Sequence record: PZ347775.1
From: a phage
Reading direction: 5' to 3' (one strand)
Length of the DNA: 64,000 nucleotides
The notes under the pieces were generated by a model, which did no database searches, was not told the origin of the DNA, and worked only from the letters and a program-made list of their open reading frames with translations. Positions 31,005 to 48,794 of this stretch are shown here, piece by piece. Numbering within the stretch: the stretch's first letter is position 1; each line of letters begins with the position of its first letter. Both the position numbers and the translations under genes were made by a program.

Positions 31005-32329
31005 TTGATTTCCTCTAAATCTTTGGTGTATTCTGTAACTACATCAGTAGTTTTCCAATATTCGTTTTCTTCTTTCTTAGCTTTAGCTTCTTCAGCAAGT
31101 TTCTTTGCTTCATCAGAAGTCATATGAAAAATATTCATTCCGACTAGTTTATCAACATAAGAAGAATACATATCAATTTTAGAAAGTTCTTCGGTCAGTT
31201 CTTTGCGAGTTTTACCTTGCACAACAATTTCACCTGAAATTACTTTCTTAATGAAATGTGCCTTGGCAAAGGCTAAACGAAATGCTGATTCAGTTTCTTT
31301 GATTTTGTTATCAATTCGCTTTTGGACATAAGTTTTACGAACTTCAACAAAGTCTTTAATTAAATCAACTACGTTATCGTAAACTTGTAGCTTTCCTTTC
31401 TCATTAATAACAGTAATATTCTGGGAACGACGCTCAATCAACCCGAAGTCTTTCATGATTTTTGCATGGCGTTCTTCTTCGTTATCGCTCAAAGAATATT
31501 CTTTACGGAATTTAACTTTAAAGCCAAAGCCATGCTCACCACAAGCATCATCCCATGTAATGAAGCCTTTATCTTCAAGCGGGTCTAAGATTTTACTCAC
31601 ATAAGTTTCACGATCATACTTATACGGAATCTCAGTGATATTCATTTGAGTTCGTGAAGTAAACTTGTACGTTCCACGAATTTCATATTGACCGTCAATT
31701 TCAACGACTTCACCACGAAATTCTGGGAATTCTACCTTCGGTTTAGTTACTTTCTTTCCTTGAAGAGCTTGTAATACAGCTTTCTTAACAGAAGAAACGC
31801 TATGAGGAAGAATGTAAGTTGCATAACCAGTTGCAATACCGGAAACACCATTAAGAAGAACAGTAGGAATAATAGGCAAATAGAAAGCAGGAGGAATGTG
31901 TTCTTTATCTTGATGTACCGGAGCATATTCAGTATCTTTATATACACTATAGAAATTTTTACTTACACGAGCAAAAATATAACGACTTGCTGCTGCTTTT
32001 TGGACAGTACGAGAACCAAAGTTTCCTTGACCATCTAACAAAGGAAAGTTATTATTCCAAGTATTAGCCATCAAAGCCCCCGCGTCTTGCGCAGAGTTTT
32101 CACCATGATGATATCCAAGGTCAGCTACACCACCTGCAATAGAAGCGAGTTTGTGAAACTTATCTTTATTTCCTCGCGCCAAATCAAGAGCTCGAGCAAT
32201 AACAAATCGTTGGACTGGCTTAAATCCATCAATCATATTTGGAATAGCACGATTTTCAACCGTGTACATAGCATAAGCCAATGCTTCATTATCAATGATA
32301 CTTTTTAAATCGCGATTATTCAGTTGCAT
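31001..32329 (-). CDS. 52: DNA topoisomerase II medium subunit gp52 (GyrA-like cleavage domain)
   Basis: 442 aa; GyrA/ParC-like N-terminal cleavage core. Confidence 0.95.
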   Translation of the reverse strand: MQLNNRDLKSIIDNEALAYAMYTVENRAIPNMIDGFKPVQRFVIARALDLARGNKDKFHKLASIAGGVADLGYHHGENSAQDAGALMANTWNNNFPLLDGQGNFGSRTVQKAAASRYIFARVSKNFYSVYKDTEYAPVHQDKEHIPPAFYLPIIPTVLLNGVSGIATGYATYILPHSVSSVKKAVLQALQGKKVTKPKVEFPEFRGEVVEIDGQYEIRGTYKFTSRTQMNITEIPYKYDRETYVSKILDPLEDKGFITWDDACGEHGFGFKVKFRKEYSLSDNEEERHAKIMKDFGLIERRSQNITVINEKGKLQVYDNVVDLIKDFVEVRKTYVQKRIDNKIKETESAFRLAFAKAHFIKKVISGEIVVQGKTRKELTEELSKIDMYSSYVDKLVGMNIFHMTSDEAKKLAEEAKAKKEENEYWKTTDVVTEYTKDLEEIK

Positions 32330-32333
32330 AAAT

Positions 32334-32474
32334 TTACCATACTAGTGAATGTAGTGCCATAATAACATCAGAAATGAAAAGCACGACTTGAATTAATCCG
32401 AACATTACTCCATAATATAGTGCTACCAATAAAGCAGCAAGGGCTACTGAGTAGCCCAAGATTTTCTTAATCAT
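32334..32474 (-). CDS. small membrane protein (46 aa)
   Basis: Hand-read ORF MIKKILGYSVALAALLVALYYGV...; stop 5 nt from gene 52 start. Confidence 0.4.
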   Translation of the reverse strand: MIKKILGYSVALAALLVALYYGVMFGLIQVVLFISDVIMALHSLVW

Positions 32475-32625
32475 TAGTAGATAACAACACAAATGTTAAA
32501 TATGCACACATACCCTGAGCTAAAGCTTGCGAAAACACACTGCTGGCATCAATACAGATAGTTAAAACGCATGCTACTATCCAACAAATAAATGAAATAA
32601 CTCCTAATAATTTTGCAATATTCAT
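32467..32625 (-). CDS. ac: probable Ac (acridine sensitivity membrane protein)
   Basis: Hand-read 52-aa hydrophobic ORF MNIAKLLGVISFICWIVACVL...; between stp and 52 as in T4. Confidence 0.5.
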   Translation of the reverse strand: MNIAKLLGVISFICWIVACVLTICIDASSVFSQALAQGMCAYLTFVLLSTND

Positions 32626-32632
32626 ATTTTCC

Positions 32633-32713
32633 TCACTGGCGTCCGAAGACGCCTTTAGTTTTAAGATTGTTACGATAGAACTGCATCACGTGTTCGTTAT
32701 GGAAATTACTCAT
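32633..32713 (-). CDS. stp: Stp peptide (activator of host PrrC anticodon nuclease)
   Basis: Hand-read 26-aa [29 protein letters not shown]; start overlaps ndd stop; matches T4 Stp as I recall it. Confidence 0.7.
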
Positions 32714-33168
32714 TAATATGCCTGCAAAACAAATTTAAAGTTATCAGCCAACATACGGTTCATTTCTTCAAGTGTTTGATACTCAGAATGATGATTACGA
32801 GTAAACGCCAAAGCTAACTGACCCTTTCCAAATCCCGTCGTCAGAGGTTTCATCTTAGAAGCAGGCAAATAAAATACTGTATATGGAACATTGTTATTTG
32901 CAATAGTACGCGCAAGCTGAGATCGACGCTGGCGAATATGACTTAGAACTGCACTGAATCCTTGCTTAGAACGCTGATTACCTACATAAAATCGTGCAGA
33001 TACACACGGATTATCAAATGGACCGCCAAATTTGCTCACTAAAAAGTAAAATCCAGGTTTAGATAAAATATCTTTATGTGGAACTCCCAAAAACCATTCA
33101 CCGTTCTTGATTGTACCAATAACGGTAGCGCCTGCATTGTTCAGATCAGTAACAGTCATATATTTCAT
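32713..33168 (-). CDS. ndd: nucleoid disruption protein Ndd
   Basis: 151 aa from [11 protein letters not shown] (track ORF trimmed); AGAGGA SD. Confidence 0.8.
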
Positions 33169-33228
33169 ATTAATTTCCTCTAAATTATTTTCTACTCCAA
33201 GGCCGCATGAATACACACGGCCATTAAA

Positions 33229-33444
33229 TTAATCATCGCAGTCGACGCTTAATTCCCAGAACTCTTCTACAGTATAAGTTTCAGTATCATTTTCAATACA
33301 GAAACGTTCATTGCTGTTATTTGCTAAAGTAGCGTTAACTGTCATTTTCTCGCTAGTGCTTTTAAGAGGCGAAATACGAATTAACTGATCACCATTATCT
33401 AAGCAAAAAATTTCACCAACTTTTACATCTTTAAAGATTTTCAT
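33229..33444 (-). CDS. hypothetical protein (71 aa)
   Basis: ORF track. Confidence 0.5.
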   Translation of the reverse strand: MKIFKDVKVGEIFCLDNGDQLIRISPLKSTSEKMTVNATLANNSNERFCIENDTETYTVEEFWELSVDCDD

Positions 33445-33559
33445 AATTCACCTCAAGGAGTATAAAATCCAAATGCAGTTGTTGACCATCCCATCCAATA
33501 TGGGAAATTTGCACCAATGTAAAACATAAGAATATAAAACCAAATGCTTAGTAAATTCA

Positions 33560-33757
33560 TTATTTTACACCATTCCAAATTGTTTCAACCACAGATTTTA
33601 AGCCATTTTGGTGAATATCCATTCCGACAACTGCCATCAAATAGATTCCAACTACAACTGAACCTAAGGCAAAAATCAGCATGAAAATGAATAAAGCTGG
33701 AAAAATATTATCGAAAAACCATTCAATAAATGTAAAAGCACTGCGTTTACGCTTCAT
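33560..33757 (-). CDS. small membrane protein (about 65 aa)
   Basis: Track ORF trimmed to MKRKRSAF with GAGGA SD; two hydrophobic segments. Confidence 0.45.
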   Translation of the reverse strand: MKRKRSAFTFIEWFFDNIFPALFIFMLIFALGSVVVGIYLMAVVGMDIHQNGLKSVVETIWNGVK

Positions 33758-33764
33758 ATTTTCC

Positions 33765-33878
33765 TCACATAAATCCAAAGTAAGCGTTTAATACATCAAT
33801 CATTAAAACGATTGGGAATATACTCAAAACTACTAGTATTATAACTACATTCCATATAGCTTTAACAATATTTTTCAT
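33765..33878 (-). CDS. small membrane peptide (about 37 aa)
   Basis: MKNIVKAIWNVVIILVVLSIFPIVLMIDVLNAYFGFM; track ORF extends spuriously through promoter. Confidence 0.35.
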   Translation of the reverse strand: MKNIVKAIWNVVIILVVLSIFPIVLMIDVLNAYFGFM

Positions 33879-33906
33879 TTTCTGTTCCTCCGTAGTTGAT
33901 AAGATA

Positions 33907-33936
33907 ATAATACCACAGAGGAACAGTCTTGTAAAC
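33907..33936 (-). promoter_or_regulatory. sigma70 early promoter (GTTTAC -35, TATTAT -10)
   Basis: Reverse complement GTTTAC-18nt-TATTAT; conserved cassette-like downstream leader. Confidence 0.5.
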
Positions 33937-34121
33937 AACTTTTTTAAAAATATTCGTAATAAATGTGAATGCCAATCACTACTGCCGAAACTTGCGCAAC
34001 CCACCACGCACACGCAATAAGTACAGAATTCAAAATTTTCATAATAACCTCATCACAAAAGTAAATGTTAAACAAATTAATGGAATACTAATTAACCAAA
34101 TAAAACACCACCATAATGAAC

Positions 34122-34394
34122 TCATAGTTCAATCTCAGCGATTTTCATTTCATTACTACTAATAGACGCTTTAAGACTATCTGAAAGAATTACATTCCAG
34201 TGGTCATTCATATGACCATTAACTAAGCGTGTAATTTCTTCGGGAGTTGAAAAATAAGGCGTATCAGACTCCCAGTGCGATAGTCCCAAGCGAGTATAAA
34301 TCATACCTTCATCATCGCTAGAATATTCAACTGACACAAACTCATCAGTTATTTTATGCTTAGCGTAATAAAATTTAAATTTCATTTTACTCAA
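34122..34394 (-). CDS. hypothetical protein (90 aa)
   Basis: ORF track. Confidence 0.5.
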   Translation of the reverse strand: MSKMKFKFYYAKHKITDEFVSVEYSSDDEGMIYTRLGLSHWESDTPYFSTPEEITRLVNGHMNDHWNVILSDSLKASISSNEMKIAEIEL

Positions 34395-34597
34395 TAATCC
34401 GCTAAAAGATCGACGATTGCATCACGAAGACACTTATTCGCAATACGCTTAAGAGCAATTTCAGTTTCTGGAGCATTTTGAATAATCATTGAATTCAATT
34501 CAGCCTCAGCAAACTGAAGTTCTTTGACTAATTCAGCTTTATATTTTCCTTGCCCTTTCTTAGCTTTTGCTCGTTTTAATTCAGCTGTAGTAAACAT
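34391..34597 (-). CDS. hypothetical protein (about 68 aa)
   Basis: Track ORF trimmed to MFTTAELK; upstream part of track ORF is the promoter cassette. Confidence 0.5.
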   Translation of the reverse strand: MFTTAELKRAKAKKGQGKYKAELVKELQFAEAELNSMIIQNAPETEIALKRIANKCLRDAIVDLLADY

Positions 34598-34631
34598 TTT
34601 ATTCTCCAAATCCGCATCAGTTGATAGTTGT

Positions 34632-34661
34632 ATAGTACCACAGTCCTTGTGGTTTGTAAAC
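34632..34661 (-). promoter_or_regulatory. sigma70 early promoter (GTTTAC -35, TACTAT -10), cassette copy B
   Basis: Reverse complement GTTTAC-18nt-TACTAT; 43-nt downstream leader nearly identical to copy at 61964-62006. Confidence 0.55.
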
Positions 34662-34677
34662 CGTTTTGTGAAAATTT

Positions 34678-35235
34678 TTAAATGGAAAGATACCATCCGT
34701 TGTAGTTGCTTTTTCTTACAACTTTACGAAGGTCTTCTCTATCACCGATGAACTTCGGAGTGTACTGGATGACACCTGGATGAATTTCTTTAGTGTTGAA
34801 TATAATTATACAGTCAGCGACTTGGTGATTCAGAATGGGCCCTAGATTTATTCCAGAACCGTATGGATACTCTCCGCTGCATCCGGTTGTTACCGAAATC
34901 CAACGTGAGTCAGTTTGGTGTGTCTTAACTTCTACACGAAGCCCGCAATATCTTGGATGCGCCAATACATCCCATGCGTATGTATACGGGTCATTAACAT
35001 CCTCTTGGCCTTTGTTAACATACCCGCTCAGCCAATCTGCTACAAAAAACTCTGCATACACAGCGATACGGCATCTTTCGATAACTTCTGCTTTATCCTG
35101 ATTAGGATTTTGTTTTAAAGAGTATCTTGCTGTATCAGCAATTTTGACCTTCATTTCACTAGTCAAATCATTGTTCGATAGGGTAAATGTTGGAATCTGA
35201 AATAGTCTCTGTAAACCCGGATTCGTTTTCTGCAT
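34678..35235 (-). CDS. denB: endonuclease IV
   Basis: 185 aa as T4 DenB; adjacent to rIIB. Confidence 0.75.
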   Translation of the reverse strand: MQKTNPGLQRLFQIPTFTLSNNDLTSEMKVKIADTARYSLKQNPNQDKAEVIERCRIAVYAEFFVADWLSGYVNKGQEDVNDPYTYAWDVLAHPRYCGLRVEVKTHQTDSRWISVTTGCSGEYPYGSGINLGPILNHQVADCIIIFNTKEIHPGVIQYTPKFIGDREDLRKVVRKSNYNGWYLSI

Positions 35236-35300
35236 TAAACTTTCCTTTTACGTCGGAATCACTGATATTCATATAATAAATCATAGTTTCTCTTAAAACA

Positions 35301-35317
35301 AAAGGGCCGAAGCCCTT
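35301..35317 (-). terminator. UUCG-loop hairpin followed by U-rich tract
   Basis: mRNA aaagggc-UUCG-gcccuuu then uguuuu; lies 4 nt past stop of the 64-aa ORF. Confidence 0.5.
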
Positions 35318-35321
35318 TATT

Positions 35322-35516
35322 TTATTTGAATTGTGCAATTCTTTTCTCTAAACAATCTGCATAAGATTTCATTGAGATAAACTGCGAAAGCAGTAATTCT
35401 TGCTCGACTTCATTAATCGTTAGAAACTTTGTGCTTTCTAAAAATTTGCTTAGTGCATTAATTTTGAGCATTAATTGATCGTATTCTTCTTTTACTCGTG
35501 CTTGATAACCTAACAT
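35322..35516 (-). CDS. hypothetical protein (64 aa)
   Basis: ORF track; AAGGA SD; C-terminus ...IAQFK mirrors rIIB C-terminus ...TEQFK. Confidence 0.5.
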   Translation of the reverse strand: MLGYQARVKEEYDQLMLKINALSKFLESTKFLTINEVEQELLLSQFISMKSYADCLEKRIAQFK

Positions 35517-35530
35517 AATTTTCCTTAGTT

Positions 35531-35546
35531 AAGGGCCGAAGCCCTT
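35531..35546 (-). promoter_or_regulatory. UUCG-loop hairpin at rIIB 3' end (copy of the 35301 hairpin)
   Basis: Identical 16-nt aagggccgaagccctt; overlaps rIIB stop; precedes SD of the 64-aa ORF. Confidence 0.45.
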
Positions 35547-36483
35547 ATTTAAATTGTTCAGTAACGTCTTCAACTACTTCGTATTGGCAGGTACGCATTT
35601 TAGCATCGTTGTAATCAATCGGAATTGATACTACATCGCGAGGATGTACTTTAACTTTTACAACTCGGCTGGTTGAACTGCCAAAGTGACGAATATAAGA
35701 TTTAGAACACACATGCAGACCACGAGAACAAGTTTGTGTATCATCGTCATTCACACGAGTACGTGGCATTTTAACTACTTTACCAGGACTGTTATCAAAA
35801 GTATTTGAATGACAGTCAAAGTAATTACTGCGAACTACTTTCCAAGCATAGAAGTAACCGTCTTCTGTAATTTCAATATCGTTTGCTACCAAGAAATCAA
35901 AGAGTCGAGATACCGCTTTTTGGCTCGGGTTTTCTAACAGATTTTCCAAGAACGGAAAATAAAATTCAAAGTTTTCGCCTTTTTCCATCGAATCGAGAAT
36001 ACGATCAACTAAACCAGACCGCAATTCAATATTTTGATAGAACAAGCTTCCACCTTCAATTCGAACATCACCGGAAATATATTTTTCAACAGCGCGACGA
36101 ACGTTAATTTTTTGCGCCGCTTCTTCCAATTTATCTGCAACAAGCAGATTAAGAATTTCCTGGAAGTTTGAATGAGTATTAGGAGTTGCGTTATAAGTTA
36201 CACCGTCAACAGTAATTGAAATGAATTTTTTAGATGCATTCCAAATAATGTCAGATTTAGCAACTGGAGCAATAGCTGCATCGCTCTTAACTGTAACTGT
36301 AATGTCACCGCTAATGGTAACTTTGGAGCGCTCAGCTTCTTCAGCATTTTTCAAAACACGACGGATTGTGTCCACCGATACACCTTGCCAATCAGCCAAT
36401 TCCTGTTGGGTGTAATTACCACTTGAATACAGTTTGACAATTTCAGCTTGTTCGTTTTTGGTCAGGCATTTAATATTGTACAT
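35545..36483 (-). CDS. rIIB: rIIB membrane-associated protein
   Basis: 312 aa as T4 rIIB; immediately downstream of rIIA. Confidence 0.9.
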   Translation of the reverse strand: MYNIKCLTKNEQAEIVKLYSSGNYTQQELADWQGVSVDTIRRVLKNAEEAERSKVTISGDITVTVKSDAAIAPVAKSDIIWNASKKFISITVDGVTYNATPNTHSNFQEILNLLVADKLEEAAQKINVRRAVEKYISGDVRIEGGSLFYQNIELRSGLVDRILDSMEKGENFEFYFPFLENLLENPSQKAVSRLFDFLVANDIEITEDGYFYAWKVVRSNYFDCHSNTFDNSPGKVVKMPRTRVNDDDTQTCSRGLHVCSKSYIRHFGSSTSRVVKVKVHPRDVVSIPIDYNDAKMRTCQYEVVEDVTEQFK

Positions 36484-36494
36484 AATTTTCCTTA

Positions 36495-38672
36495 TTAGGC
36501 CGCAAGGGCCTTCATAGTTTTAGCGATTTGGGAAACTTCATCATCACTTAAAGAATTGCGATAACCGATGAAGTCGGAAACAATACGGAATTTCTTGGTA
36601 AACTCAGCAACCATTTTATCACTGTTTTTTAAAGCATTACGTGATAATTCATCAAAAAGATTAGTTACGGTCCAGATGTCATGACCGATGGTATCTTTTC
36701 CACCATTGAAATATACACCCCGCAATGAACTAACCATATTACCAAGGCGAGTATATTCTTCGGAAACTTCATCTGTACTGAAATATTTCATCATAAAATT
36801 AAGTTCAGGATACTTAATAATTTTATCAATATATCGCTGAGCTGAACTTGAATAACCTACATACTTATCATAATCTACATCGTCAAAAGCATCTACATAT
36901 AAATCACGCAGAGTTTCAAAAATACATTGGCACTGACCAAGTTCTTTTACCTTTTTCTGCAAAAGTGGACGAATAACATAAAATTCATTAATGCCAATAA
37001 GATTAGCCATACGGGTCAAAATACTCGTAGATGGATTACAAAGCGATGTAGTACCATCCATAGAGAAAATATCAGAACGATGCATATATGCTACATAACC
37101 AGTAATTTCATCTGCTTCTGATGTGAGCGTAAACAGTTCCTCTTTTTCCCAGCGCCCGTCTTTAATTTCAAACTTAAATGCAGTAGCAGTTTTAGGACGA
37201 GGAGCTGCGCTTTTTACTACCTTTGGAATATAACTTTTAACTAAAGCTTCGATTTCTGACAAATAATGAATGTTAACTTCATCACTTTCAAACATTGCCA
37301 TAATGTCAGGAAGCAAATCAATCTGCGATTCTACTTCTGGATTAATAAACAGAAGCCGCTCATTGTGATGAATATTTAAGGTGTTATTAAATTCGCTATC
37401 ATCTAATGCACGTGCTAATCCACGGACAATATTAACACGATTTTTAGTATTATCAATAACAATATTAATTTTTGACGTATTAATACCAAACAGACGATAG
37501 CTTGACGCAACGGCTGAAGTTTCATGGCTTTGCTTAATGCGTTTCAGTCGAGGGTCAAGATTTACTTCATACACAACCCCTGCATTGCATAACTTACTGT
37601 CAGGTTCAAACATACTCTGCATCTTTTTATATGACAGATTTTTAGTCGTGAATTTGACTGAATTGCTAATCATATAATCTCGGGCAGAATATCCCATCTT
37701 CATCAATTCACGGTATGTATGACGAGGAGATGTAGATTCTTTAAATCGTTTTACATCTTCATTAAACGCCTGCTCACTGAGCTCTTTAACACGCTCAATA
37801 ATATTTTTACGAGTACGATCATCTAGTGAAAGAGCCTCACGCGATGGGGCAATATCAAGTGAACCCATTGGAAACTTAATGTAATTCACTTCATTGCGGA
37901 TGCTTAACCAGTTACGATCTCTAATAACACCTTCGATAGGATAAACAATGCCGCCATAGATAGCATACAATCCACCGCGATCTGGCCAGTATCTTTCTGG
38001 ATTTACGCCGTAATAATCATCAAAATCCGGAAAATAATCAATTTCGCGGTCAAGACCGTTAATGATAGCCAAATCTTTGAATGGTCGCATAATATAAGAA
38101 ACTTCATAAGCAAAGTTTCTAAAGTCTTTTTCTTCAACTGGAACTACGATTTCAATACCAGTTTTATCATCTGGACCCATTTCTTTTACGAATGTAGGTT
38201 TAATCTGTGGACCATCACCATCCATGTAAGCTACATAACCACGAATTTCACCTTTATGATATGAAGTAATACTAAATGTATCAGTATAACTAAACGGAGA
38301 TTTAGAACCTAAACCAAATCCACCAATGAAATCATTAGATTCAGCCTTAGATGAACTAAAGTATGAATTATACAACCCAGGAGAATTATCATCACCCTGA
38401 ATATCAAAATCGCTCATACCTGGACCAAAATCTCGGCAAACAAATCGCGGATCTAATCGTCCTGGAACTTGAATGATAAATTTTTCAGGATTTCCATTAA
38501 GAGCATGGGCATCAATCATGTTGGTAATCAATTCACGGACTACTGCGCGAATCTTGTTTGTATACAAATCAGATGACAGAATTTTAAATACTTTAGGAGA
38601 CGCTGTGATGCTAAATGCTTTTGATTTAGAACCATTACCAAGAATTGTTTCTTTTTCAGTGGTGATAATCAT
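36495..38672 (-). CDS. rIIA: rIIA protein
   Basis: 725 aa as T4 rIIA; N-terminal GHKL-like region. Confidence 0.9.
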
Positions 38673-38682
38673 AATTTCCTCA

Positions 38683-38886
38683 TTAATTCATATTGCGTTT
38701 AATAACTTCAGCAACTTCTAGTAGTTCATCTTTAGTTGCGGTGTCGGATTGAATTTTATCTCTAATATCCTTAAAGCGGTTTTTAAACTCTTCGGCTTCT
38801 CCCATATCGAAAAAGCGTTGAATGATTCTATATTCTCGATGAACTGCTTTATCAAAAAGTTCTAAATTTACTTTATATGATTTCAT
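38683..38886 (-). CDS. hypothetical protein (67 aa), rIIA.1-like
   Basis: ORF track; between gene 39 and rIIA. Confidence 0.55.
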
Positions 38887-38911
38887 TTCAATATCCTCAT
38901 TTGCCCAATTA

Positions 38912-38941
38912 ATTATACCACATCCTTGTGGTAAAGTAAAC
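38912..38941 (-). promoter_or_regulatory. sigma70 early promoter (GTTTAC -35, TATAAT -10)
   Basis: Reverse complement GTTTAC-18nt-TATAAT; -35 overlaps gene 39 stop; ccaca/tgtgg stem in spacer. Confidence 0.55.
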
Positions 38942-40758
38942 TATTGGCTCATCCATTCTTTACGAAGGTCAGCATTATCTCCCATAAGCATTTCAAAAAG
39001 CTCTTTCCAGTTCTCAGGAAGTTTAACAACATCATATACTGGATTTTGAATCATCTCACGATATTCAGATTTTTCCAAAGAGCCAAGTCCTTTAATATAA
39101 CGGATGCTATGTTTAGGTAGAGCATCTTTGGCACTCTCATATTCAGCGACTGTATAAAACCATTCTTGTTTTTTACCGACCTGAGCGATGATTACAGGAG
39201 TTTTGACAAAGCGAATTCTTCCTTGTTCAAACAGTTCTGGCCAATTACTAAAAAATCCGAGCAGAGAAGGATAAATGCTTCCTAGACCATCATGGTCAGC
39301 GTCAGTCATAATGGCAATATTGTGATAATTCAAGTTTTCGGCTTTTTCACCAAGAACTAATCCAGTGATTGCGCAAATATCAAACAGTTCTTTGTTTTTA
39401 AGCATATCAGCATAAGACATACCCCAACTGTTGAGAACTTTACCACGCAATGGATAACCACCATGAAGTTCTTTATCACGAACATCAATAAGATATCCGA
39501 TAGCAGAATCACCCTCAGTCAAGAAAAGAGTAGTATCAGCATCTTTACCGCAAAGATTCGCTTTAATATGTTTATGAACCTTAGCTTTAGAAGCCTTTTT
39601 AGCTGCTTTAGTTTCTGCTGCTTTTTCTGCCGCCAATTTACGAGCCAAAGCAGCTTCAATAATTGGCATTAAAATTGCTTCATTATTTAAAATAGCACGT
39701 GAAATCTTTTTAGCATCAAGCTGAATATGACTACGAATTTCACCAAATGGAGAAGTCAAACGCTCTTTAGTTTGAGAATCAAATCGCATGTTTTTCATAT
39801 CACGAACAAACATAACGATAGTCAAACATTCTTTAACACGTGCTTTAGTTACATCAATTTTGAACTTACGTTTGATTTGTGGAATAAGGTCTTCACAAAT
39901 ATCATCCATAACACAGTCAATGTGATGGCCACCATTCTTAGTATGAATGTTATTAACGTATGTTAATTGACGAAAACCGTCGGGTGAACGACCGACCGCA
40001 ATAGAACAGTTTTCCTGTTCTTGAACGATAGCATGCTCATCATATTGGCGTGCATATTTCTTAAAATTACCCTGAACCTTTTTACCGTTAAAGGTAAATT
40101 GAATATCAGGATAAACTACTGCAAGTGTCTGGAGACGATCTAGTGTAATGTCAAGATAAACTTGAGATAGCTCATTAGTTTCAAATGACATAAAATCAGG
40201 AATGAAAGTAACGCGAGTTCCTTTCCATTTTCCAGGAATATCTTCCCATGATTTATTTTCCATGCCATTTGAACAACGAACTACAATATTATTTTGACCA
40301 TCGCCAGTTTCACCGACAAACATCACAGAAAAAATGTTAGTTAAACTAGAACCAACACCGTTCATACCGCCAGTGACGCGTTCTTTGTCATCACCGAAGT
40401 TACCACCTGCTTTTGGAATAGTCCAGGCAGCAACAGGACCAGGAATTTCTTCACCAGTAGGTGTTTTAACCATCGCTTGTGGAATACCACGACCGTTATC
40501 TTCAACTGTTACTTGATTGTTTTTAATAGTAACATTAATTTTATTCGCGAATTTAAACTTAGTACGAATACCTTCATCTACTGAGTTATCGATAATTTCA
40601 TCAATAAGCTTAACAAGACCAGGTACATACTGAACACTTTCCCATTTACCAAACAGAAAGCGCTCATGCATTTCATTAGCAGAAGAACCAATGTACATGC
40701 CGCTACGCTTTTTGATATGTTCAATATCGCTCAGAATTTTAATTTCATTCTTAATCAT
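38941..40758 (-). CDS. 39: DNA topoisomerase II large subunit, uninterrupted (gp39 with gp60-equivalent C-terminus)
   Basis: 605 aa from MIKNEIK; GHKL ATPase motif VEDNGRGIP; C-terminal about 115 aa (IAIMTDADHDGLGSIYPSLL...) is the segment encoded by the separate gene 60 in T4. Confidence 0.95.
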   Translation of the reverse strand: MIKNEIKILSDIEHIKKRSGMYIGSSANEMHERFLFGKWESVQYVPGLVKLIDEIIDNSVDEGIRTKFKFANKINVTIKNNQVTVEDNGRGIPQAMVKTPTGEEIPGPVAAWTIPKAGGNFGDDKERVTGGMNGVGSSLTNIFSVMFVGETGDGQNNIVVRCSNGMENKSWEDIPGKWKGTRVTFIPDFMSFETNELSQVYLDITLDRLQTLAVVYPDIQFTFNGKKVQGNFKKYARQYDEHAIVQEQENCSIAVGRSPDGFRQLTYVNNIHTKNGGHHIDCVMDDICEDLIPQIKRKFKIDVTKARVKECLTIVMFVRDMKNMRFDSQTKERLTSPFGEIRSHIQLDAKKISRAILNNEAILMPIIEAALARKLAAEKAAETKAAKKASKAKVHKHIKANLCGKDADTTLFLTEGDSAIGYLIDVRDKELHGGYPLRGKVLNSWGMSYADMLKNKELFDICAITGLVLGEKAENLNYHNIAIMTDADHDGLGSIYPSLLGFFSNWPELFEQGRIRFVKTPVIIAQVGKKQEWFYTVAEYESAKDALPKHSIRYIKGLGSLEKSEYREMIQNPVYDVVKLPENWKELFEMLMGDNADLRKEWMSQ

Positions 40759-40785
40759 CACTTATCCTCGTTTGATTTCGGGAAT

Positions 40786-40812
40786 ATTATACTCCGGTAA
40801 TCATAAAGCTAA
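40786..40812 (-). promoter_or_regulatory. candidate MotA-dependent middle promoter upstream of gene 39
   Basis: Minus strand reads aGCTTTA (MotA-box-like, one mismatch) - 12 nt - TATAAT, then GAGGA SD and gene 39 ATG. Confidence 0.3.
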
Positions 40813-40827
40813 AGGCCCGAAGGCCTT

Positions 40828-41088
40828 TTATTTAAAACGGATAGTCGAATCCTTGAAGAATAGACCAGAACATACGGTTCCTTCTACTTTCTGCCCTGTA
40901 GGTCCAATAGCACGAAATCCAGTATGCTGGAAATCATTTTCAGAGCAACCGAACCAATTATATCCAGTGATTTCAATATTAGTAAAACCACTTGAAGACA
41001 AAACTTTGGTTGCATTATCAGCATCAGTACATCCTACTAAAGATACTGCTAATACTAATGCCGCGATAGAACGATTAACATATTTCAT
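40828..41088 (-). CDS. predicted lipoprotein (about 86 aa)
   Basis: Track ORF trimmed to first ATG MKYVNRSIAALVLAVSLVGCTD (signal peptide + lipobox). Confidence 0.5.
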   Translation of the reverse strand: MKYVNRSIAALVLAVSLVGCTDADNATKVLSSSGFTNIEITGYNWFGCSENDFQHTGFRAIGPTGQKVEGTVCSGLFFKDSTIRFK

Positions 41089-41092
41089 AATT

Positions 41093-41464
41093 TCACTCAA
41101 ATTTAATGGCTTGAAGGAGACTAATAATTCTTAAGCGACTTCTTTCATCTTTAACTGTAAAAGAAAGAGGGTCACCAGATTTCATAGTGATGGTGCATCC
41201 AAAATCAAAATCTTCTGTAACTTCTTCGAAGAAGTCAAATTCTTCATCATAAATTAGAACATTACTCTGAAAACTGTGAAGAATTTTTCCATCATTTCCA
41301 GATGCTGTACTAATCATTGTAACATTATGGCCTTTCATATCTTCAACGATAAATTCGCTTGTAGATATTACGGCATTAATAGAACCATTCCTATAAATAG
41401 AAGAAAGCAGATATTTCTTTTCTTCACCTTCGCGAACACGATATTTCTTACCGATTTTAAACAT
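41093..41464 (-). CDS. hypothetical protein (about 123 aa)
   Basis: ORF track trimmed to first ATG (MFKIGKKYRV). Confidence 0.5.
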   Translation of the reverse strand: MFKIGKKYRVREGEEKKYLLSSIYRNGSINAVISTSEFIVEDMKGHNVTMISTASGNDGKILHSFQSNVLIYDEEFDFFEEVTEDFDFGCTITMKSGDPLSFTVKDERSRLRIISLLQAIKFE

Positions 41465-41466
41465 AA

Positions 41467-41643
41467 TCACCCTTTAAGTAAGTCGTAAAATCCACCATTC
41501 ACATGCTTAGGAGCAGAAGGCAGACGAGTAGACAAACGATGACATTTAGGGCAAACATCATTTTCTCGTTCAGAAATCTTTTTAATTTTTTCATATTCAT
41601 GCCCACAATCTTCGGATTGGCATTTATAATCATACAATGGCAT
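41467..41643 (-). CDS. zinc-ribbon protein (58 aa)
   Basis: Hand-read ORF MPLYDYKCQSEDCGHEYEKIKKISERENDVCPKCHRL...; CxxC-17-CxxC. Confidence 0.45.
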   Translation of the reverse strand: MPLYDYKCQSEDCGHEYEKIKKISERENDVCPKCHRLSTRLPSAPKHVNGGFYDLLKG

Positions 41644-41645
41644 AA

Positions 41646-42065
41646 TTATTCCTTAAAGTGTGCTTTCAACATCTGATACAAGGACCATGCCTGTTCATTA
41701 TTTTCAATAGTAACTTTCATGACTGGGAATTCTGTGAAATCTTCTATTTGTTCTTGCTCTTCCTGCTCTTGTTCTTCAGATGCCTGGTATGGATTTTCCA
41801 CTTCATCAAAGAACCCAGCTTCGTTAGTAGAAAGCCAGATAAAGTTTTCGTCAAGGATATCACCATGTGTTGCATATCCAACTGTGCCAGTAGATGTCAC
41901 AATTTTAGTAGGACGCCCGTAATAGTCCACATCTAAAATTTTAAAAGGTTCCATACCTAAACGTCGTGCATAGATTCCGTTATCAGTATGGTCTTTAATA
42001 AAATTTTCTTGAGCTTGTTTATTTTTAAATTGATACCATTTATTAACTTCAAATCTAATAGCCAT
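41646..42065 (-). CDS. hypothetical protein (139 aa) with acidic EQEQEEQEQ tract
   Basis: ORF track. Confidence 0.55.
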
Positions 42066-42280
42066 TAATAAATTTCCTTCCAGTAAGTTGTGCCATCTTC
42101 AGTAATTTCACGGAATACACCGTAAATTGGTTGTTTATCGCCGACTTTCTCATACACATAAACCGAAGTCAAGTGAGTAAACTTAACAGTATGTTCCTTT
42201 TGAACCACTACCAAATCTGGATCAAATAATACATCTTCAAATTCGTCATTAGTGCAGTTCTGAACAATTTTACGTTTCAT
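42065..42280 (-). CDS. hypothetical protein (71 aa)
   Basis: ORF track. Confidence 0.5.
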
Positions 42281-42293
42281 TACAATTTCCTCA

Positions 42294-42563
42294 TTAATTG
42301 AACAGTGGAGCGATGCGTTTCAGAAGAGTAGCAGCACCTTTGGCAAATTTTACATCATGAAAAACAGTTTCTTCTTCCGTTACAACACGAACTTTAATGT
42401 TTTCACAATCCCAATTTTTACGAACAATCTTCAAAAGCTGCAGTAAATCTTTACATTCAGCAATATCGATAACACATCCACGAGAATCTTCCATTATCGC
42501 ACGATAACCATAAGCCATACCATAATCGTTGAAAGATTGTTCGATGATAATTAAGTTTTCCAT
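42294..42563 (-). CDS. hypothetical protein (about 89 aa)
   Basis: Track ORF trimmed to first ATG MENLIIIEQ. Confidence 0.5.
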   Translation of the reverse strand: MENLIIIEQSFNDYGMAYGYRAIMEDSRGCVIDIAECKDLLQLLKIVRKNWDCENIKVRVVTEEETVFHDVKFAKGAATLLKRIAPLFN

Positions 42564-42591
42564 TTTATTCTCCAAGTTGTTTTCTGTATCA

Positions 42592-42660
42592 GTAGTTGAT
42601 ATTGATATAGTACCATAATCAACTACTGATGTATATAGTTTTATGAAAAAATTTTAAACT
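42592..42660 (-). promoter_or_regulatory. promoter/stem-loop cassette with 11-bp inverted repeat
   Basis: cagtagttgat...atcaactactg inverted repeat enclosing TACTAT; GTTTAA and TATATA motifs upstream; same leader family as other cassettes. Confidence 0.4.
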
Positions 42661-42670
42661 TTATGCAAAT

Positions 42671-43090
42671 TTATGCTAAAGCTGCTTCGCACCATTTTTT
42701 AATTTGGAATTCAGGAACTACCATGAACTGGCCTGCAAAAACAATATTGTAGAGCTTGACGCCATCTTCTACCCAACGGTCCGAAATAAAACCAGCGACT
42801 TGATTCGTTGTCCACGGAGTTCCATCTGTTGCCGCCGCAATTGTGAATTTATGGTCTTTTACAACTAAAACTGAAGAACAAAGTTTCCATTTAAATGCGC
42901 TTTCTTCTGGCTCAATGAATTGGCTTGAGACATAACCAATGTTACCATCAGCGTCACGAACTTTAACCTCGTTACGACCAAAAACTGGATCACTTACAGA
43001 AAGAACTTCAACCAGCTTTCCTGCAACTTTAGAACGAGAAGCAACGGATACATATACGTAATCACCAGTAGAGAGATTTACAATATTCAT
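42671..43090 (-). CDS. MotB-like paralog (139 aa)
   Basis: Shares blocks with next ORF: GKLVE, EVKVR, WVEDGVKLYN.VF.G...V.PE. Confidence 0.6.
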   Translation of the reverse strand: MNIVNLSTGDYVYVSVASRSKVAGKLVEVLSVSDPVFGRNEVKVRDADGNIGYVSSQFIEPEESAFKWKLCSSVLVVKDHKFTIAAATDGTPWTTNQVAGFISDRWVEDGVKLYNIVFAGQFMVVPEFQIKKWCEAALA

Positions 43091-43106
43091 AATAATTCCT
43101 TAAACT

Positions 43107-43595
43107 TTATGCATAGAGAGCTTTGCTATAGTGTTTAATCCAGCTTTCAGGAATGACTTTGTATGTTCCTAAAAATACCACATTATACAGCTTAACACCG
43201 TCTTCTACCCACTGATCGGTAATGTATGCGCACATAGCACGAGTATAAACAGCCACACCATCATCTTTGATAAATTTAAATTCACAAGGAGCAATGAACT
43301 TAATAGCCTGACCGAGTTTCCACTTAAAGTCTACACCTACATGCGAAGTATCAATCGTTTCAATTCCTTTAGCAGGAACAGCTTTCAAAAACGCAGACTC
43401 AAGAAATTTCGCACGAACATAGCCAAACTGAGGTTTAGACTTTCCATCTTTAGGAATGATACGCACTTTTACTTCAGAATCTTCATCTTTAACACCATGT
43501 TTAAGCTGAATGCTTACAATTTCGACCAATTTTCCTGCTGCTTTAGAACGTGATTTATCAGATACACGAGCAATTTCACCAATATTAATAATCAT
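43107..43595 (-). CDS. motB: probable MotB (modifier of transcription)
   Basis: 162 aa as T4 MotB; early promoter upstream; paralogous to 42671..43090. Confidence 0.55.
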   Translation of the reverse strand: MIINIGEIARVSDKSRSKAAGKLVEIVSIQLKHGVKDEDSEVKVRIIPKDGKSKPQFGYVRAKFLESAFLKAVPAKGIETIDTSHVGVDFKWKLGQAIKFIAPCEFKFIKDDGVAVYTRAMCAYITDQWVEDGVKLYNVVFLGTYKVIPESWIKHYSKALYA

Positions 43596-43639
43596 AGTTA
43601 TCTCTCACTTGTTAAAAAGATTTTATACTCCACAGGACC

Positions 43640-43669
43640 ATTATACTCTGGTCCCAAGAGTTTGTAAAC
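43640..43669 (-). promoter_or_regulatory. sigma70 early promoter (GTTTAC -35, TATAAT -10)
   Basis: Reverse complement GTTTAC-18nt-TATAAT upstream of 43595. Confidence 0.55.
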
Positions 43670-43827
43670 TATTAATTCAAAATAGCTACCACTGCACTAC
43701 GAGGTACTACGCTAAAATCACCTGCATGAACAACGTTCAGAAGTTCAACACGATAAATTTTCATTTTATTATCCTCAGTAGCTATGGTGTTATAATACCA
43801 TAACTAACCGAGGAAGTAAACAACTTT

Positions 43828-44511
43828 TTATCGTTTTGTTGGAAGGGATAGAGGATCGCAATCTTCCTCTGACGGAGCATCTTCAAGACCCATAGCATAT
43901 CGCAAAGCATACTTCATCATCAGGATGTCTTTCGCACAGTCATGAATAGAATCATGTGCAACGAATCCATCTAAAGTTCCCTTTGGAAGAGGACATGTGG
44001 TCATATCACGAACAAGCAAAAGTGCTTCAATTCTAGTACGAATATCACGTTGATTCCAGAATTTACATGGTTCTAACTTAAATGTATCAAGCTCATTCTC
44101 AGAAACGCCATTAAGACGTTGAATATCGCGAATGAGATCGACTAAAATTGGAAAATCAAACGACATTCCACGGCACCAGCCTTGAGATTTCCAAGGATCG
44201 ATGTTATGTGCATTGATGTAATCATTAAATTTTGCAATACCATCGATAGTGCTTACATCTTCATCTGATGGCGCAATATTTTTTCGAGCTTCAGGAGACT
44301 GATTTTTCCACCATTCGATAGTGCTTTTAGTAAAAAGACGATGTCCTTTTTGGCTTTTTAAATCAAACTTGATTTTAATGCCGCGTGAAACTAATTCATC
44401 AAAGGATTCAACTACTTCTGGGTTAGGGTCAAAGGCAATAACAGCTAAGTCAATAACAGCTGCTTTTTCACCGCTTCCCATTGTTTCAAAATCTATAATA
44501 AAATCAAACAT
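43828..44511 (-). CDS. dexA: exonuclease A (DnaQ-like 3'-5' exonuclease)
   Basis: 227 aa as T4 DexA; DEDDh-like N-terminal motif DFETMG. Confidence 0.8.
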   Translation of the reverse strand: MFDFIIDFETMGSGEKAAVIDLAVIAFDPNPEVVESFDELVSRGIKIKFDLKSQKGHRLFTKSTIEWWKNQSPEARKNIAPSDEDVSTIDGIAKFNDYINAHNIDPWKSQGWCRGMSFDFPILVDLIRDIQRLNGVSENELDTFKLEPCKFWNQRDIRTRIEALLLVRDMTTCPLPKGTLDGFVAHDSIHDCAKDILMMKYALRYAMGLEDAPSEEDCDPLSLPTKR

Positions 44512-44753
44512 TAAATTTTCCTCGCTAAATCGCGAATTTGACCTACAGTATAATCTTGGATATAAACTTTATTAATGGGCTCATCAATAAATTTTGCCAT
44601 AGATTCAATATCTTTTTGTATCTCTTCAAGACTGTATACTATCTTTAAAGCTTTTTCGCGAATAGTAACATTATCAGGTCCTGAATTTTCTTGAATGACA
44701 GCTTTAACATTTGTCATAAGAGATTTAAACTGCTGCAAACTTAATTCAATCAT
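44511..44753 (-). CDS. hypothetical protein (about 80 aa)
   Basis: Track ORF trimmed to first ATG (MIELSLQQF). Confidence 0.45.
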   Translation of the reverse strand: MIELSLQQFKSLMTNVKAVIQENSGPDNVTIREKALKIVYSLEEIQKDIESMAKFIDEPINKVYIQDYTVGQIRDLARKI

Positions 44754-45006
44754 TAATAACCGCCTTATAAAGATGGCTAATTTCACCTAAAACATAATCA
44801 CTGATTGTAACAGTTTTCACTTCACCACAAAAGAATTCTAACGCAATCAAATCTCGTTCAATTTCTTCCAATTGAAGCATTAACTTGCCTGATTCAATTT
44901 TCACGTTTTTGCGATTTTTACTATAAGCTATTTCATATATTTCGCTCACTTTATCTTGAAGTAGATAAAACTGGTCTTTAGTTATTTCCACGAATAGCTT
45001 CCTCAA
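44746..45006 (-). CDS. hypothetical protein (86 aa), start uncertain
   Basis: ORF track; apparent non-ATG start. Confidence 0.4.
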   Translation of the reverse strand: MRKLFVEITKDQFYLLQDKVSEIYEIAYSKNRKNVKIESGKLMLQLEEIERDLIALEFFCGEVKTVTISDYVLGEISHLYKAVIND

Positions 45007-45012
45007 ATTTAA

Positions 45013-46332
45013 TCATACATAAAACACATCATAACGACCACGTGTTACACCAACATAAAGAAGCTGCTGAGCCAATTCAGCATCTGCATAATGGATACAA
45101 GGCGTATAGATAAAAGCACGGTCTACAGACATGCCCTGAGCTTTGTGGAATGTTGATGCAGGAAGTGCTTTCACTTTACTAAACTGTGATTTAGCATCCC
45201 AAAAATCACTCCATGGAGCTTTTCCACCTTTATTCCAATTTTTATAAGTTTCTGCCGTTTTACCTAAAAATAAGTTAAACTTATACAGCTCTTCATCAGA
45301 TGAAATTATTTTAATCTTTTCACGATAATATTCATCATCGCCGTAAGTTTCTACTGTTAAATCCCAATGACGAATTAGATATTCTCCAGGAACACCACGA
45401 GCTTTAACAAATGTTGATGTATACTCTGCTTCTATAATACGAACTAATTGTCCGTTATTAAAAATAATTTCTGACACAGGCTTTCCATCAATTTTATATG
45501 TTTTAATTAGTGGTTCCTGCATTACAATAATTTCACCAACGATAAAATCTTTATCAGTTTCAAAAATCTTTTTACGAATAATGCTATTTAACTTGTCAAC
45601 AGATTTATTCGTAAATGCCATTACACGATTTTCAAACAAATCATCTAGTGATTTTACGATTGAAAAATAATTTACCATAAAATCGCGTAAAGCGGTATCA
45701 CCAGTAAATCCACGTACTCCATGTCCGTCAACAATTTTATCATAAATCCACTTACCATTACGAACATCAGTAGCTACATCAATAATAGGAGCATTACTGC
45801 GTTTAACTTCAGTGAGTTCACACTGATAAAAATCTTTATGTGTAAAGAATGGACTGATATAAGCAGTGTTTTCTCCTGGGTCAACAGGTCTAATTTGCTT
45901 ATTATCGCCTATTCCAATTATAGTACACCATGGCGGGATAGTTGAAAGCAAAATTTTAAATAGCTTTCTATCATACATTGACACTTCGTCGCAGATTAAT
46001 ACCCTGCATTTAGCCAAATCCGGTACTTCTTTTTGCTCAAAAAGAACGTTTTCTTCGTATGTTACTGGGTTAATTTTGAGAATACTGTGAATAGTACTCG
46101 CTTCTTTCCCTGACAGTTTTGAAAGAATCTTTTTAGCTGCATGAGTAGGAGCTGCTAAAATAATGCCAGTTTCGCCTGTAGATATTAAGGCTTCAATGAT
46201 GAACTTAGTAAGAGTAGTCTTACCAGTACCAGCAGGTCCATTAATAGTTACATGATGTTTCTTTTCTTTAATAGCCCTCATAACGATGTTAAAGGCATTT
46301 TTCTGGCCTTCTGTCAAATCATCAAATGTCAT
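45013..46332 (-). CDS. dda: DNA helicase Dda (SF1B)
   Basis: 439 aa; Walker A GPAGTGKTT; T4 Dda size. Confidence 0.9.
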   Translation of the reverse strand: MTFDDLTEGQKNAFNIVMRAIKEKKHHVTINGPAGTGKTTLTKFIIEALISTGETGIILAAPTHAAKKILSKLSGKEASTIHSILKINPVTYEENVLFEQKEVPDLAKCRVLICDEVSMYDRKLFKILLSTIPPWCTIIGIGDNKQIRPVDPGENTAYISPFFTHKDFYQCELTEVKRSNAPIIDVATDVRNGKWIYDKIVDGHGVRGFTGDTALRDFMVNYFSIVKSLDDLFENRVMAFTNKSVDKLNSIIRKKIFETDKDFIVGEIIVMQEPLIKTYKIDGKPVSEIIFNNGQLVRIIEAEYTSTFVKARGVPGEYLIRHWDLTVETYGDDEYYREKIKIISSDEELYKFNLFLGKTAETYKNWNKGGKAPWSDFWDAKSQFSKVKALPASTFHKAQGMSVDRAFIYTPCIHYADAELAQQLLYVGVTRGRYDVFYV

Positions 46333-46640
46333 CGTAAATTCCCTGCAATTGGTATACTAACAATACGCCCAGTATCTAAAATTCGCCGATATAATCTTTG
46401 TGTGTCTACATCAGGCTTAACATGTTTAACTTCTATTTTATTAAACCAAAACTTGCGTGGAGTCTCAACTAATCTCGGAATTCCCATACCTAAAGCTAGT
46501 CGATACTGCTCTTTAAGAGTTGTAAAAACTTTATCGGCAATCTCCCTTTCAAAAAATACAGCAGGACGATGTTCATCAAGAGGAACAGGCACCGCAAATC
46601 CATCTTTATCTCTATACACTATCGCATATACATAAAACAT
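46329..46640 (-). CDS. hypothetical protein (103 aa)
   Basis: ORF track; ATGA overlap with dda. Confidence 0.55.
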   Translation of the reverse strand: MFYVYAIVYRDKDGFAVPVPLDEHRPAVFFEREIADKVFTTLKEQYRLALGMGIPRLVETPRKFWFNKIEVKHVKPDVDTQRLYRRILDTGRIVSIPIAGNLR

Positions 46641-46641
46641 A

Positions 46642-47388
46642 TTATCCTCGGATAAGTTTAAAAATTGAACAATTTAGCGGGTATCCTCTTTTCAGTTTAA
46701 GTTTATCAATAAAAGACAAGTTTTGATACCGCTCTACACCTTGAATAATTTTATCACACATATCATATTGCATTTCTGCTTCTGACAACTTTTTCACAGT
46801 TTTCCAATCCGAGCCTTTAAGAAGAACGTTCAATTTAACAACTTCAGCGCCTTCTGCTATACGAGAACCATCAATACGAGCTTTGAGTGCTACAATCGTT
46901 AGCTTAATGTCAGAGGTTTGTTTTGATTTAGAAAGCTGAGAAATGTGTTCAATTCGGTTTTCGCGTTTTTTCTGTATAGCTTTAATTTGATTATAAGTCT
47001 TTTTGATTTTAGCCCATTTCTTTTCATCTAAATTTAGTTTATGAACTTTTTTCGCAGATGAACGACCAATTCGTAAAGCAAACAAATCACGCTTTTCAAT
47101 CAACTCTTCTAAAGTATAATCAGAACGAAATGTATTGTACTTTTTCTTTACTGCAATAACATTCCCTTTAATGTATCCAACGTTATTATCAAAACGTTCT
47201 AATGATAATTTCTCTCCTTCAATACGATTATCAAAAGGTTCTCCCGAGTAAGCGCAAACTTTCTGATCTAAAATGTTCTTAATGTAATTGAAGTCTAAGT
47301 TAAAATCTTTAGAACGTCTTTTGGCAGATGCCTGAGTATGCTCTAAACGACGTGTAATTTTACGAATTTGATTTTTAGACAGTTTCAT
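46642..47388 (-). CDS. srd: probable Srd (sigma-like regulator)
   Basis: 248 aa basic protein between dda block and modA as in T4; assignment by synteny. Confidence 0.55.
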   Translation of the reverse strand: MKLSKNQIRKITRRLEHTQASAKRRSKDFNLDFNYIKNILDQKVCAYSGEPFDNRIEGEKLSLERFDNNVGYIKGNVIAVKKKYNTFRSDYTLEELIEKRDLFALRIGRSSAKKVHKLNLDEKKWAKIKKTYNQIKAIQKKRENRIEHISQLSKSKQTSDIKLTIVALKARIDGSRIAEGAEVVKLNVLLKGSDWKTVKKLSEAEMQYDMCDKIIQGVERYQNLSFIDKLKLKRGYPLNCSIFKLIRG

Positions 47389-47418
47389 ATTTTTCTCACG
47401 GACGGGTTAACTACTTAT

Positions 47419-47448
47419 ACTATAACATTTTTACTTCAGCTTGTAAAC
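47419..47448 (-). promoter_or_regulatory. sigma70 early promoter (GTTTAC -35, TATAGT -10)
   Basis: Reverse complement GTTTAC-18nt-TATAGT upstream of srd. Confidence 0.5.
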
Positions 47449-47504
47449 AACTTTATGAAAAATGCTTTAAAACTTTCATGGTATAATGAATCTAAGTCCT
47501 TCCA

Positions 47505-48107
47505 TTATAGATTAAATCCTTCAAAATCAAGAGTATAGATAGTGTATGTTGAATACTTTTTATACTCGTATCTATCCGCAATTCTAAATACACTTCCAGC
47601 TGGTATCATTACTTCCTGTTCATCTGAAACTAATTCCATATTACGATAACGATGGCTATCCGGAAATTTAAAACTCGGACTATATTCTTTACAACGTAGA
47701 GCTTTTATAGCATACTCCTGAAAATTAAATACCATAGGAGCTTTGAATTCAAAAATAACTTGTGTGTTGTATTCTAATCCAGAAGCAAAATGCAGAGCTA
47801 TATTTTTATCATATGAAGCTGATACTACTTTATCGAATGTAATAATATCAATTCCTTGATTTAACACCTGTTTAGTCTCAACTGGAACACCTCTCCAAAG
47901 AGGTTTATCGTTTGGAACCAAACGAGATTTGATTATTTCATTTAACCAAGAATGATCGTCTGGCTTATTAGTAATACAATGAATTAAAAGTTCAATTTCA
48001 GATAAATTAAATCCTTCAGAAAGTAATTCTTCACGAATAGAAGCACGCACCGATGCATCCATTGATTTTATTTTAAAATCTTTTAATTGCATTGCTGAAT
48101 ATTTCAT
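47505..48107 (-). CDS. modA: ADP-ribosyltransferase ModA
   Basis: 200 aa; paired with adjacent 211-aa paralog sharing ...E.....IP.G... C-terminal core; T4 modA-modB arrangement. Confidence 0.7.
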   Translation of the reverse strand: MKYSAMQLKDFKIKSMDASVRASIREELLSEGFNLSEIELLIHCITNKPDDHSWLNEIIKSRLVPNDKPLWRGVPVETKQVLNQGIDIITFDKVVSASYDKNIALHFASGLEYNTQVIFEFKAPMVFNFQEYAIKALRCKEYSPSFKFPDSHRYRNMELVSDEQEVMIPAGSVFRIADRYEYKKYSTYTIYTLDFEGFNL

Positions 48108-48739: not shown

Positions 48740-48753
48740 ATACTTCAGAAGCT

Positions 48754-48783
48754 ATCATATCATTGTTAGGAAGGAAAGTAAAC
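48754..48783 (-). promoter_or_regulatory. sigma70 early promoter (GTTTAC -35, TATGAT -10)
   Basis: Reverse complement GTTTAC-18nt-TATGAT upstream of modB. Confidence 0.45.
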
Positions 48784-48794
48784 AACTTTTTGAA

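Follow-up and report, generated by a model that had tools for sequence, protein, structure and literature searches.

An uninterrupted topoisomerase gene 39 in a probable T-even phage other than T4

In phage T4 the large subunit of topoisomerase II is encoded in two pieces, genes 39 and 60, and the locus described here raises the question of what an undivided gene 39 represents: a gene that never was interrupted, or one that was interrupted and later rejoined. The enzyme has two subunit types in T2 and T6 and three in T4 (PMC11461880). Manning and Atkins (bioRxiv 10.1101/2022.08.31.505936) describe the interrupting unit as a MobA element of ~1.1 kb, which inserts at nt 1399-1419 of Topo2L, removes ~64 nt of the parental gene and brings its own diverged copy (HomR, 67-81% identical) followed by a gap; in the T4 clade (clade 1) there are 9 more HomR nt after the gap. 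They term uninterrupted genes "parental" Topo2L, and they report secondary fusion after element loss in a Campylobacter-phage clade. For the present window (the whole stretch of phage DNA that was analysed, 64,000 nucleotides of PZ347775.1), the reading set out below is that it almost certainly carries a gene 39 that is intact and was never invaded, from a Tequatrovirus other than T4, and that is conventionally translated to one 605-aa chain.

The initial annotation had reported one uninterrupted 605-codon ORF at 38941-40758 without giving a strand. The ORF is there, on the minus strand and with no internal stop; translation gives 605 sense codons followed by a stop:

38941..40758, minus strand: gene 39 ("60plus39"), complete large (GyrB-like) subunit of the T4-type type IIA DNA topoisomerase, 605 aa
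40765..40769, minus strand: Shine-Dalgarno sequence GAGGA, 6 nt upstream of the gene 39 ATG, read from the sequence

The plus strand of this interval is full of stops, so the gene lies on the minus strand and a plus-strand reading was rejected. The ATG start is at 40758-40756 and the stop codon at 38941-38943. An automatic ORF list places the start one codon upstream, at a GTG at 40761, which was dropped because both homology and the spacing from the Shine-Dalgarno sequence favour ATG 40758; from there the N-terminus reads MIKNEIK..., as in gp39 of T4, T2, T6 and RB14. The peptide IAIMTDADHDGLGSIYPSLLGFF, quoted in the initial annotation, is found at residues 481-503. No hidden frameshift or gap was detected: residues 1-605 align gap-free with gp39 of T2, T6, RB14 and ime09 and with PDB chain 8ylu_C.

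By its domains and motifs, gene 39 encodes a complete GyrB-like type IIA topoisomerase subunit. The product matches phrog_543 ("DNA topoisomerase II large subunit", E = 2.4e-295), unbroken over residues 1-605, and contains the Pfam domains HATPase_c, DNA_gyraseB and TOPRIM_C. The parts on which this assignment draws, and the gene for its partner, are as follows:

40312..40620, minus strand: GHKL ATPase core, residues 47-149 (Pfam PF02518 HATPase_c, E = 2e-09)
39502..39516, minus strand: Toprim catalytic Glu motif EGDSA, residues 415-419, from a motif search
39286..39303, minus strand: Toprim DxDxD motif DADHDG, residues 486-491, from a motif search
31001..32329, minus strand: gene 52, GyrA-like DNA breakage-reunion subunit, 442 aa (phrog_551 and Pfam)

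The ATPase motifs are DNGRGIP at residue 87 and GGMNGVG at 130 (N-box and G-box both found). The transducer domain is present (DNA_gyraseB, E = 1.4e-13, residues 250-384), with the QTK loop at residue 329 in FDSQTKERL. The Pfam Toprim core model gave no match in the product at E <= 0.001, and only TOPRIM_C scored (E = 4.2e-07); the Toprim region is covered by the EGDSA and DADHDG motifs and by full-length alignments to solved Topo II and ParE chains in the PDB. Both halves of the Toprim site (EGDSA at 415, DADHDG at 486) thus lie on one chain in the window ORF; EGDSA is kept in 6/6 aligned phage proteins, and T4 retains this half of the metal site on gp39. The GyrA/ParC-like partner, gp52, is encoded within the same genome (phrog_551 "DNA topoisomerase II", E = 1.7e-220; Pfam DNA_topoisoIV, E = 1.7e-76).

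Comparison with T4 (RefSeq NC_000866 region) shows where the two arrangements part. The initial annotation had proposed an alignment with T4 gp39 plus gp60 and with gp39 of T2, T6 and the RB phages; the alignment proves seamless to both, and gap-free to T2, T6 and RB14. By BLASTP, window residues 1-473 correspond to T4 gp39 1-473 (466/473 identical, 98.5%, no gaps) and residues 472-605 to T4 gp60 27-160 (128/134, 95.5%, no gaps), so that the C-terminal segment is homologous to gp60, as had been supposed, and is joined in frame. The parts of T4 without a counterpart in the window ORF are gp39 residues 474-516 and gp60 residues 1-30. By BLASTN there are two blocks, window 41090-39341 with T4 5661-3911 (95.8%) and window 39276-38602 with T4 2793-2119 (98.2%), and the stretch between them measures 1,117 nt in T4 and 64 nt in the window:

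39277..39340, minus strand: 64-nt "parental" junction between the BLASTN blocks, ORF nt 1419-1482, codons 473-494

At base level, homology to T4 stops after ...GGTGAAAAAGC, inside codon 473. The published features of the element are reproduced (break at ORF nt 1418/1419, parental segment of 64 nt), and the right-hand homology restarts 9 nt past the gap, at T4 2793, which fits the published description of HomR. At the junction T4 reads GAC GCA GAT CAC GAT GGA (50-nt gap) TTA GGT TCT, whereas the window reads GAC GCT GAC CAT GAT GGT CTA GGA AGC; the window therefore has no gap, no adjacent stop codon and no GGA take-off codon. The T4 gap would fall just past codon 491, at the boundary of window positions 39286 and 39285, where the window runs uninterrupted from GGT to CTA. 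Folding of the junction RNA in the window is unremarkable against shuffled sequences (z = -0.66), compared with z = -2.18 for the T4 bypass region with its known take-off hairpin.

The absence of mobA and of the 50-nt bypass, also claimed at the outset, extends from the locus to the whole window. T4 insert DNA gave chance-level matches only, at the locus and elsewhere in the 64 kb window; the 50-nt gap shares no 14-mer with any part of the 64 kb; the CTE, NTE and gp60.1 peptides gave no significant tblastn match in it; and no mobA or remnant of it lies between the topoisomerase halves in the window. T4 and the window thus have in common orthologous coding on both sides (gp39 1-473 and gp60 ~31-160) and the flanking genes rIIA.1 and 39.1. 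Only T4 has a 43-aa C-terminal extension on gp39 (CTE), a 30-aa N-terminal extension on gp60 (NTE), the mobA pseudogene/60.1, a diverged HomR copy (68% identity) and the 50-nt gap with GGA take-off and landing codons, UAG stop and take-off stem-loop; there the ~1.1 kb MobA element (CTE, mobA, NTE/HomR, 50-nt gap) takes the place of the 64-nt junction. In the proposed mechanism this homing-endonuclease element replaced the 64 nt inside the Toprim domain of an intact gene, and its insertion produced the split into 39 and 60 together with the bypass gap, making the three-subunit T4 enzyme the derived form.

An open reading frame can look intact without being so, either as a pseudogene or through an assembly artefact that collapsed an insert or a frameshift. 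Only the general possibility of assembly error speaks for this reading, which is scarcely credible here. The protein is matched over its full length by the independently sequenced RB14, HP3, UGKSEcP1 and Maryam (100%) and by T2, T6 and ime09 (at least 99.7%); 508 phage records have the 2.6-kb locus in contiguous form, with a single stretch covering at least 80% of it; and all catalytic motifs are intact. The protein is identical to RB14 "gp60plus39" at 606/606 positions (stop included) and differs from T2 at one residue (F70L, 99.8%), from ime09 at one (A407V, 99.8%) and from T6 at two (D173T and Q526H, 99.7%); gp39 of T2, T6, RB14 and ime09 is 605 aa in every case and aligns to it without gaps. 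At the nucleotide level the gene is 95.8-98.2% identical to that of these four phages, with only synonymous or near-synonymous differences, and it likewise lies between rIIA.1 and 39.1. In the more distant RB69 (Mosigvirus) gp39 is also uninterrupted, ~605 aa long (within 1 aa) and collinear (607 columns) at 80% identity; in RB69 an additional ORF of 366 aa separates rIIA.1 from gene 39.

Given an intact gene, conventional translation would yield one full-length gp39 chain containing ...GEKAENLNYHNIAIMTDADHDGLGS..., a single 605-aa polypeptide with GHKL ATPase, transducer and complete Toprim for which recoding would not be needed. Two gp39 and two gp52 would then form an ATP-dependent type IIA topoisomerase of the two-subunit type, as in T2 and T6, so that the enzyme would have two subunit types where that of T4 has three. 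The gp39(2)-gp52(2) topoisomerase serves phage DNA replication. Six PDB entries (8ylu and others) hold a 611-aa chain; 8ylu_C aligns over residues 1-605 with 603/605 identical, and its two mismatches to the window protein are precisely those of T6. The T6 two-subunit enzyme has been purified, is active, and its structure was solved by cryo-EM (PMC11461880). With a gp39 that differs from that of T6 at 2/605 residues, the window enzyme would be expected to carry out ATP-dependent relaxation and strand passage as the T6 enzyme does. The insertion of ~70 aa in the T4 enzyme lies outside the Toprim domain and leaves activity unchanged (PMC11461880).

Could the window come from T4, or from an engineered derivative of T4 with the cassette removed? 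Fused gp39-gp60 expression constructs of T4 do exist, as in PDB 8yo3, but that artificial fusion keeps the ~70-aa insertion in a 682-aa chain and the window ORF is without it. The cassette is present in all T4 records of the collection and missing from the window; the left flank of the locus is 95.8% identical to T4 (BLASTN). The best matches over the surrounding 24 kb are phages other than T4, namely Salmonella phage F13076, ECO07P1 and KFS-EC3, at ~97% identity and with 95-97% of the query covered; the collection has no record that reaches 99% identity over those 24 kb. The genes beside gene 39 differ from T4 as well:

35545..36483, minus strand: rIIB
36495..38672, minus strand: rIIA
38683..38886, minus strand: rIIA.1
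40828..41100, minus strand: 39.1, 90 aa (65 aa in T4)
41093..41470, minus strand: RB69ORF005c-like ORF, 125 aa (phrog_622; weak similarity to goF-type proteins)
42671..43090 and 43107..43595, minus strand: two adjacent MotB-like genes, 139 and 162 aa (both phrog_1671)

This neighbourhood is a classical T-even early region, with the same-strand order beyond 39.1 running RB69ORF005c-like ORF, 39.2, goF, cef, two motB-like genes and dexA. The 125-aa ORF between 39.1 and 39.2 occurs in RB14, T6 and ime09 and not in T4. At the site of the two MotB-like genes T4 has one motB, then motB.1 and motB.2, and the neighbourhood is therefore mosaic relative to T4; both MotB-like proteins share a C-terminal ...QWVEDGVKLYN(I/V)VF... 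motif. A T4 origin, natural or engineered, is accordingly close to inconceivable, and the evidence supports what the initial annotation had said, that the phage is not T4: it is most plausibly another Tequatrovirus.

The same annotation had called the arrangement ancestral, and the comparison bears this out on three grounds: contiguous outgroups, no element-derived extensions, and a junction of the parental type. First, the gene is one piece far beyond the T-even phages. At least 80% of the protein is covered in one place in 2,020/2,210 matching phage records; among the sampled matches the gene is undivided in Klebsiella, Acinetobacter, Aeromonas, Sinorhizobium, Campylobacter and jumbo phages, and in Sinorhizobium and Salmonella phages this holds down to ~30% identity. 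Records with the T4 insert number 43 and include all T4 isolates, RB55, RB59 and HY01. Human and yeast Topo II and ParE are collinear with the protein across the T4 split point over residues ~10-603 (PDB chains: human TOP2B, E = 1.2e-59 over residues 10-603; ParE, E = 1.6e-47 over residues 6-603). These cellular type IIA B modules have low sequence identity to the window protein, yet ParE, GyrB and the N-terminal half of eukaryotic Topo II show the same order of ATPase, transducer and Toprim; unlike eukaryotic Topo II, the phage enzyme has its breakage-reunion part on a subunit of its own, the short gp52 (442 aa). Contiguity in relatives, distant phages and cellular enzymes argues that the uninterrupted state is ancestral and the T4 state derived, in agreement with the literature.

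Second, and more specific to this allele, the junction is of the parental type and not of the T4 HomR type. It is 58-61/64 identical to T2, T6, RB14 and ime09, and over its last 57 nt it matches these uninserted phages at 52-55/57 positions against 39/57 (68%) for T4 HomR, although the 300-nt flanks on either side match T4 at 292/300 and 294/300. This bears on the possibility of a secondary fusion or "hit and run", in which an ancestor carried the MobA element, lost it, and had its 39 and 60 re-fused. Element loss followed by secondary fusion is known in other clades (Manning and Atkins), and a clean parental allele could be regained without trace by recombination with a relative that lacks the insert. 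The window shows none of the marks of a re-fused gene: there are no CTE or NTE residues, the length equals that of T2, T6 and RB14 and is within 1 aa of RB69, the junction has no HomR-type polymorphisms, and no insert-derived DNA or peptide occurs in the window. A clean recombinational replacement would be indistinguishable from a never-invaded gene, and the allele would be the same anyway. We consider secondary fusion extremely unlikely. Since there is no CTE or NTE remnant and the junction is parental, the locus reads, as far as its sequence goes, as a parental allele that was never invaded.

A never-invaded gene 39 that keeps the 64-nt stretch is by the same token an empty MobA homing site. 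Manning and Atkins (10.1101/2022.08.31.505936), citing Bonocora et al. 2011, describe movement of the cassette into T2 by MobA and nicking of T2, and they present the gap as a guard against self-nicking. On this model the 64-nt segment is presumably cleavable, and upon co-infection with a MobA-positive relative the empty site would be predicted to be nicked and converted. The sensitivity predicted here is carried over from T2, whose junction differs from that of the window at 4/64 nt, all synonymous and 3 of them among the last 57; ime09 and the window agree throughout the ~40 nt surrounding the predicted nick site. It is very unlikely that the junction variants give this empty site a natural resistance to MobA, or that the allele is that of a cleanly reverted former element host. 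Resistance, if true, would be immunity by target drift and not by a bypass gap, and a resistant or reverted allele would bear on why the cassette is present in only ~8% of sequenced Tequatroviruses.

The description of gene 39 as unsplit is correct but already known, and it is the majority state among sequenced relatives. Split versus unsplit is textbook T-even biology, and the structure of the element, its mobility into T2 and the two-subunit structure of T6 have all been published; with the arrangement already in the literature, the finding is of low interest as novelty. Its value lies in annotation, where full-length topoisomerase II large subunit (gp39, "60plus39") is the proper label for the gene and Tequatrovirus other than T4 that for the phage. 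The locus also adds one further unoccupied MobA homing site to the roughly 500 already sequenced.

Upstream of the gene 39 ATG lie two elements that may bear on its expression:

40786..40811, minus strand: probable T4 middle-type promoter, a MotA-box-like TAGCTTTA, 12 nt spacer and TATAAT
40811-40828, minus strand: GGCC-UUCG-GGCC hairpin at the end of 39.1, overlapping the start of the MotA-box-like element

We take TAGCTTTA to be MotA-box-like from the T4 middle-promoter consensus, and gene 39 may thus be expressed from a MotA-type middle promoter. A scan of 38600..41200 for sigma-70 promoters and terminators gave counts not above the shuffled expectation and did not list this promoter, so its assignment stays putative. 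Directly after the gene 39 stop and upstream of rIIA.1 and rIIA, at 38912..38940 on the minus strand, is a strong early-promoter-like site in which a 17 nt spacer separates TTTACT from a TG-extended TATAAT (10/12 matches); a similar one is found at 40986..40957, within 39.1. Rfam at gathering thresholds found no family on either strand of the whole 1..64000 window.

A search with the MobA pseudogene peptide gave one match above chance, at ~52.6 kb:

52114..52764, minus strand: free-standing HNH homing-endonuclease ORF, 216 aa, with an HHIIPR...NLVELT..EH motif and NUMOD3

This ORF sits between gene 56 (dCTPase, 51594..52112) and gene 61 (primase, 53032..54060). It was rejected as MobA: it is a different Mob-family HNH endonuclease, elsewhere than the gene 39 locus, whose N-terminal 92 aa are 49% identical to the intact MobA of HY01 (the catalytic module) and whose remainder is unrelated. 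Of 590 records matching the region, only 30 have 80% or more of the query covered, and the ORF accordingly looks like a sporadically distributed mobile gene; T4 presumably has no such HNH gene between 56 and 61.

Two oddities concern the T4 reference. At gene 39 codons ~325-328, NC_000866 encodes NMR-LIR-QTKE, whereas the window (~39775-39790, minus strand) and T2 encode NMR-FDS-QTKE; the T6, RB14, ime09 and RB69 proteins are the same as the window here. In the DNA of the T4 record this corresponds to a compensating -1/+1 indel pair (CGATTGATTCGTCAA versus CGATTTGATTCTCAA) adjoining the conserved QTK loop, and NMR-LIR is probably a legacy sequencing error. The insert of the T4 reference, finally, is 1,117 nt long, against 1,106 nt in all other T4 records (98.7% identity).
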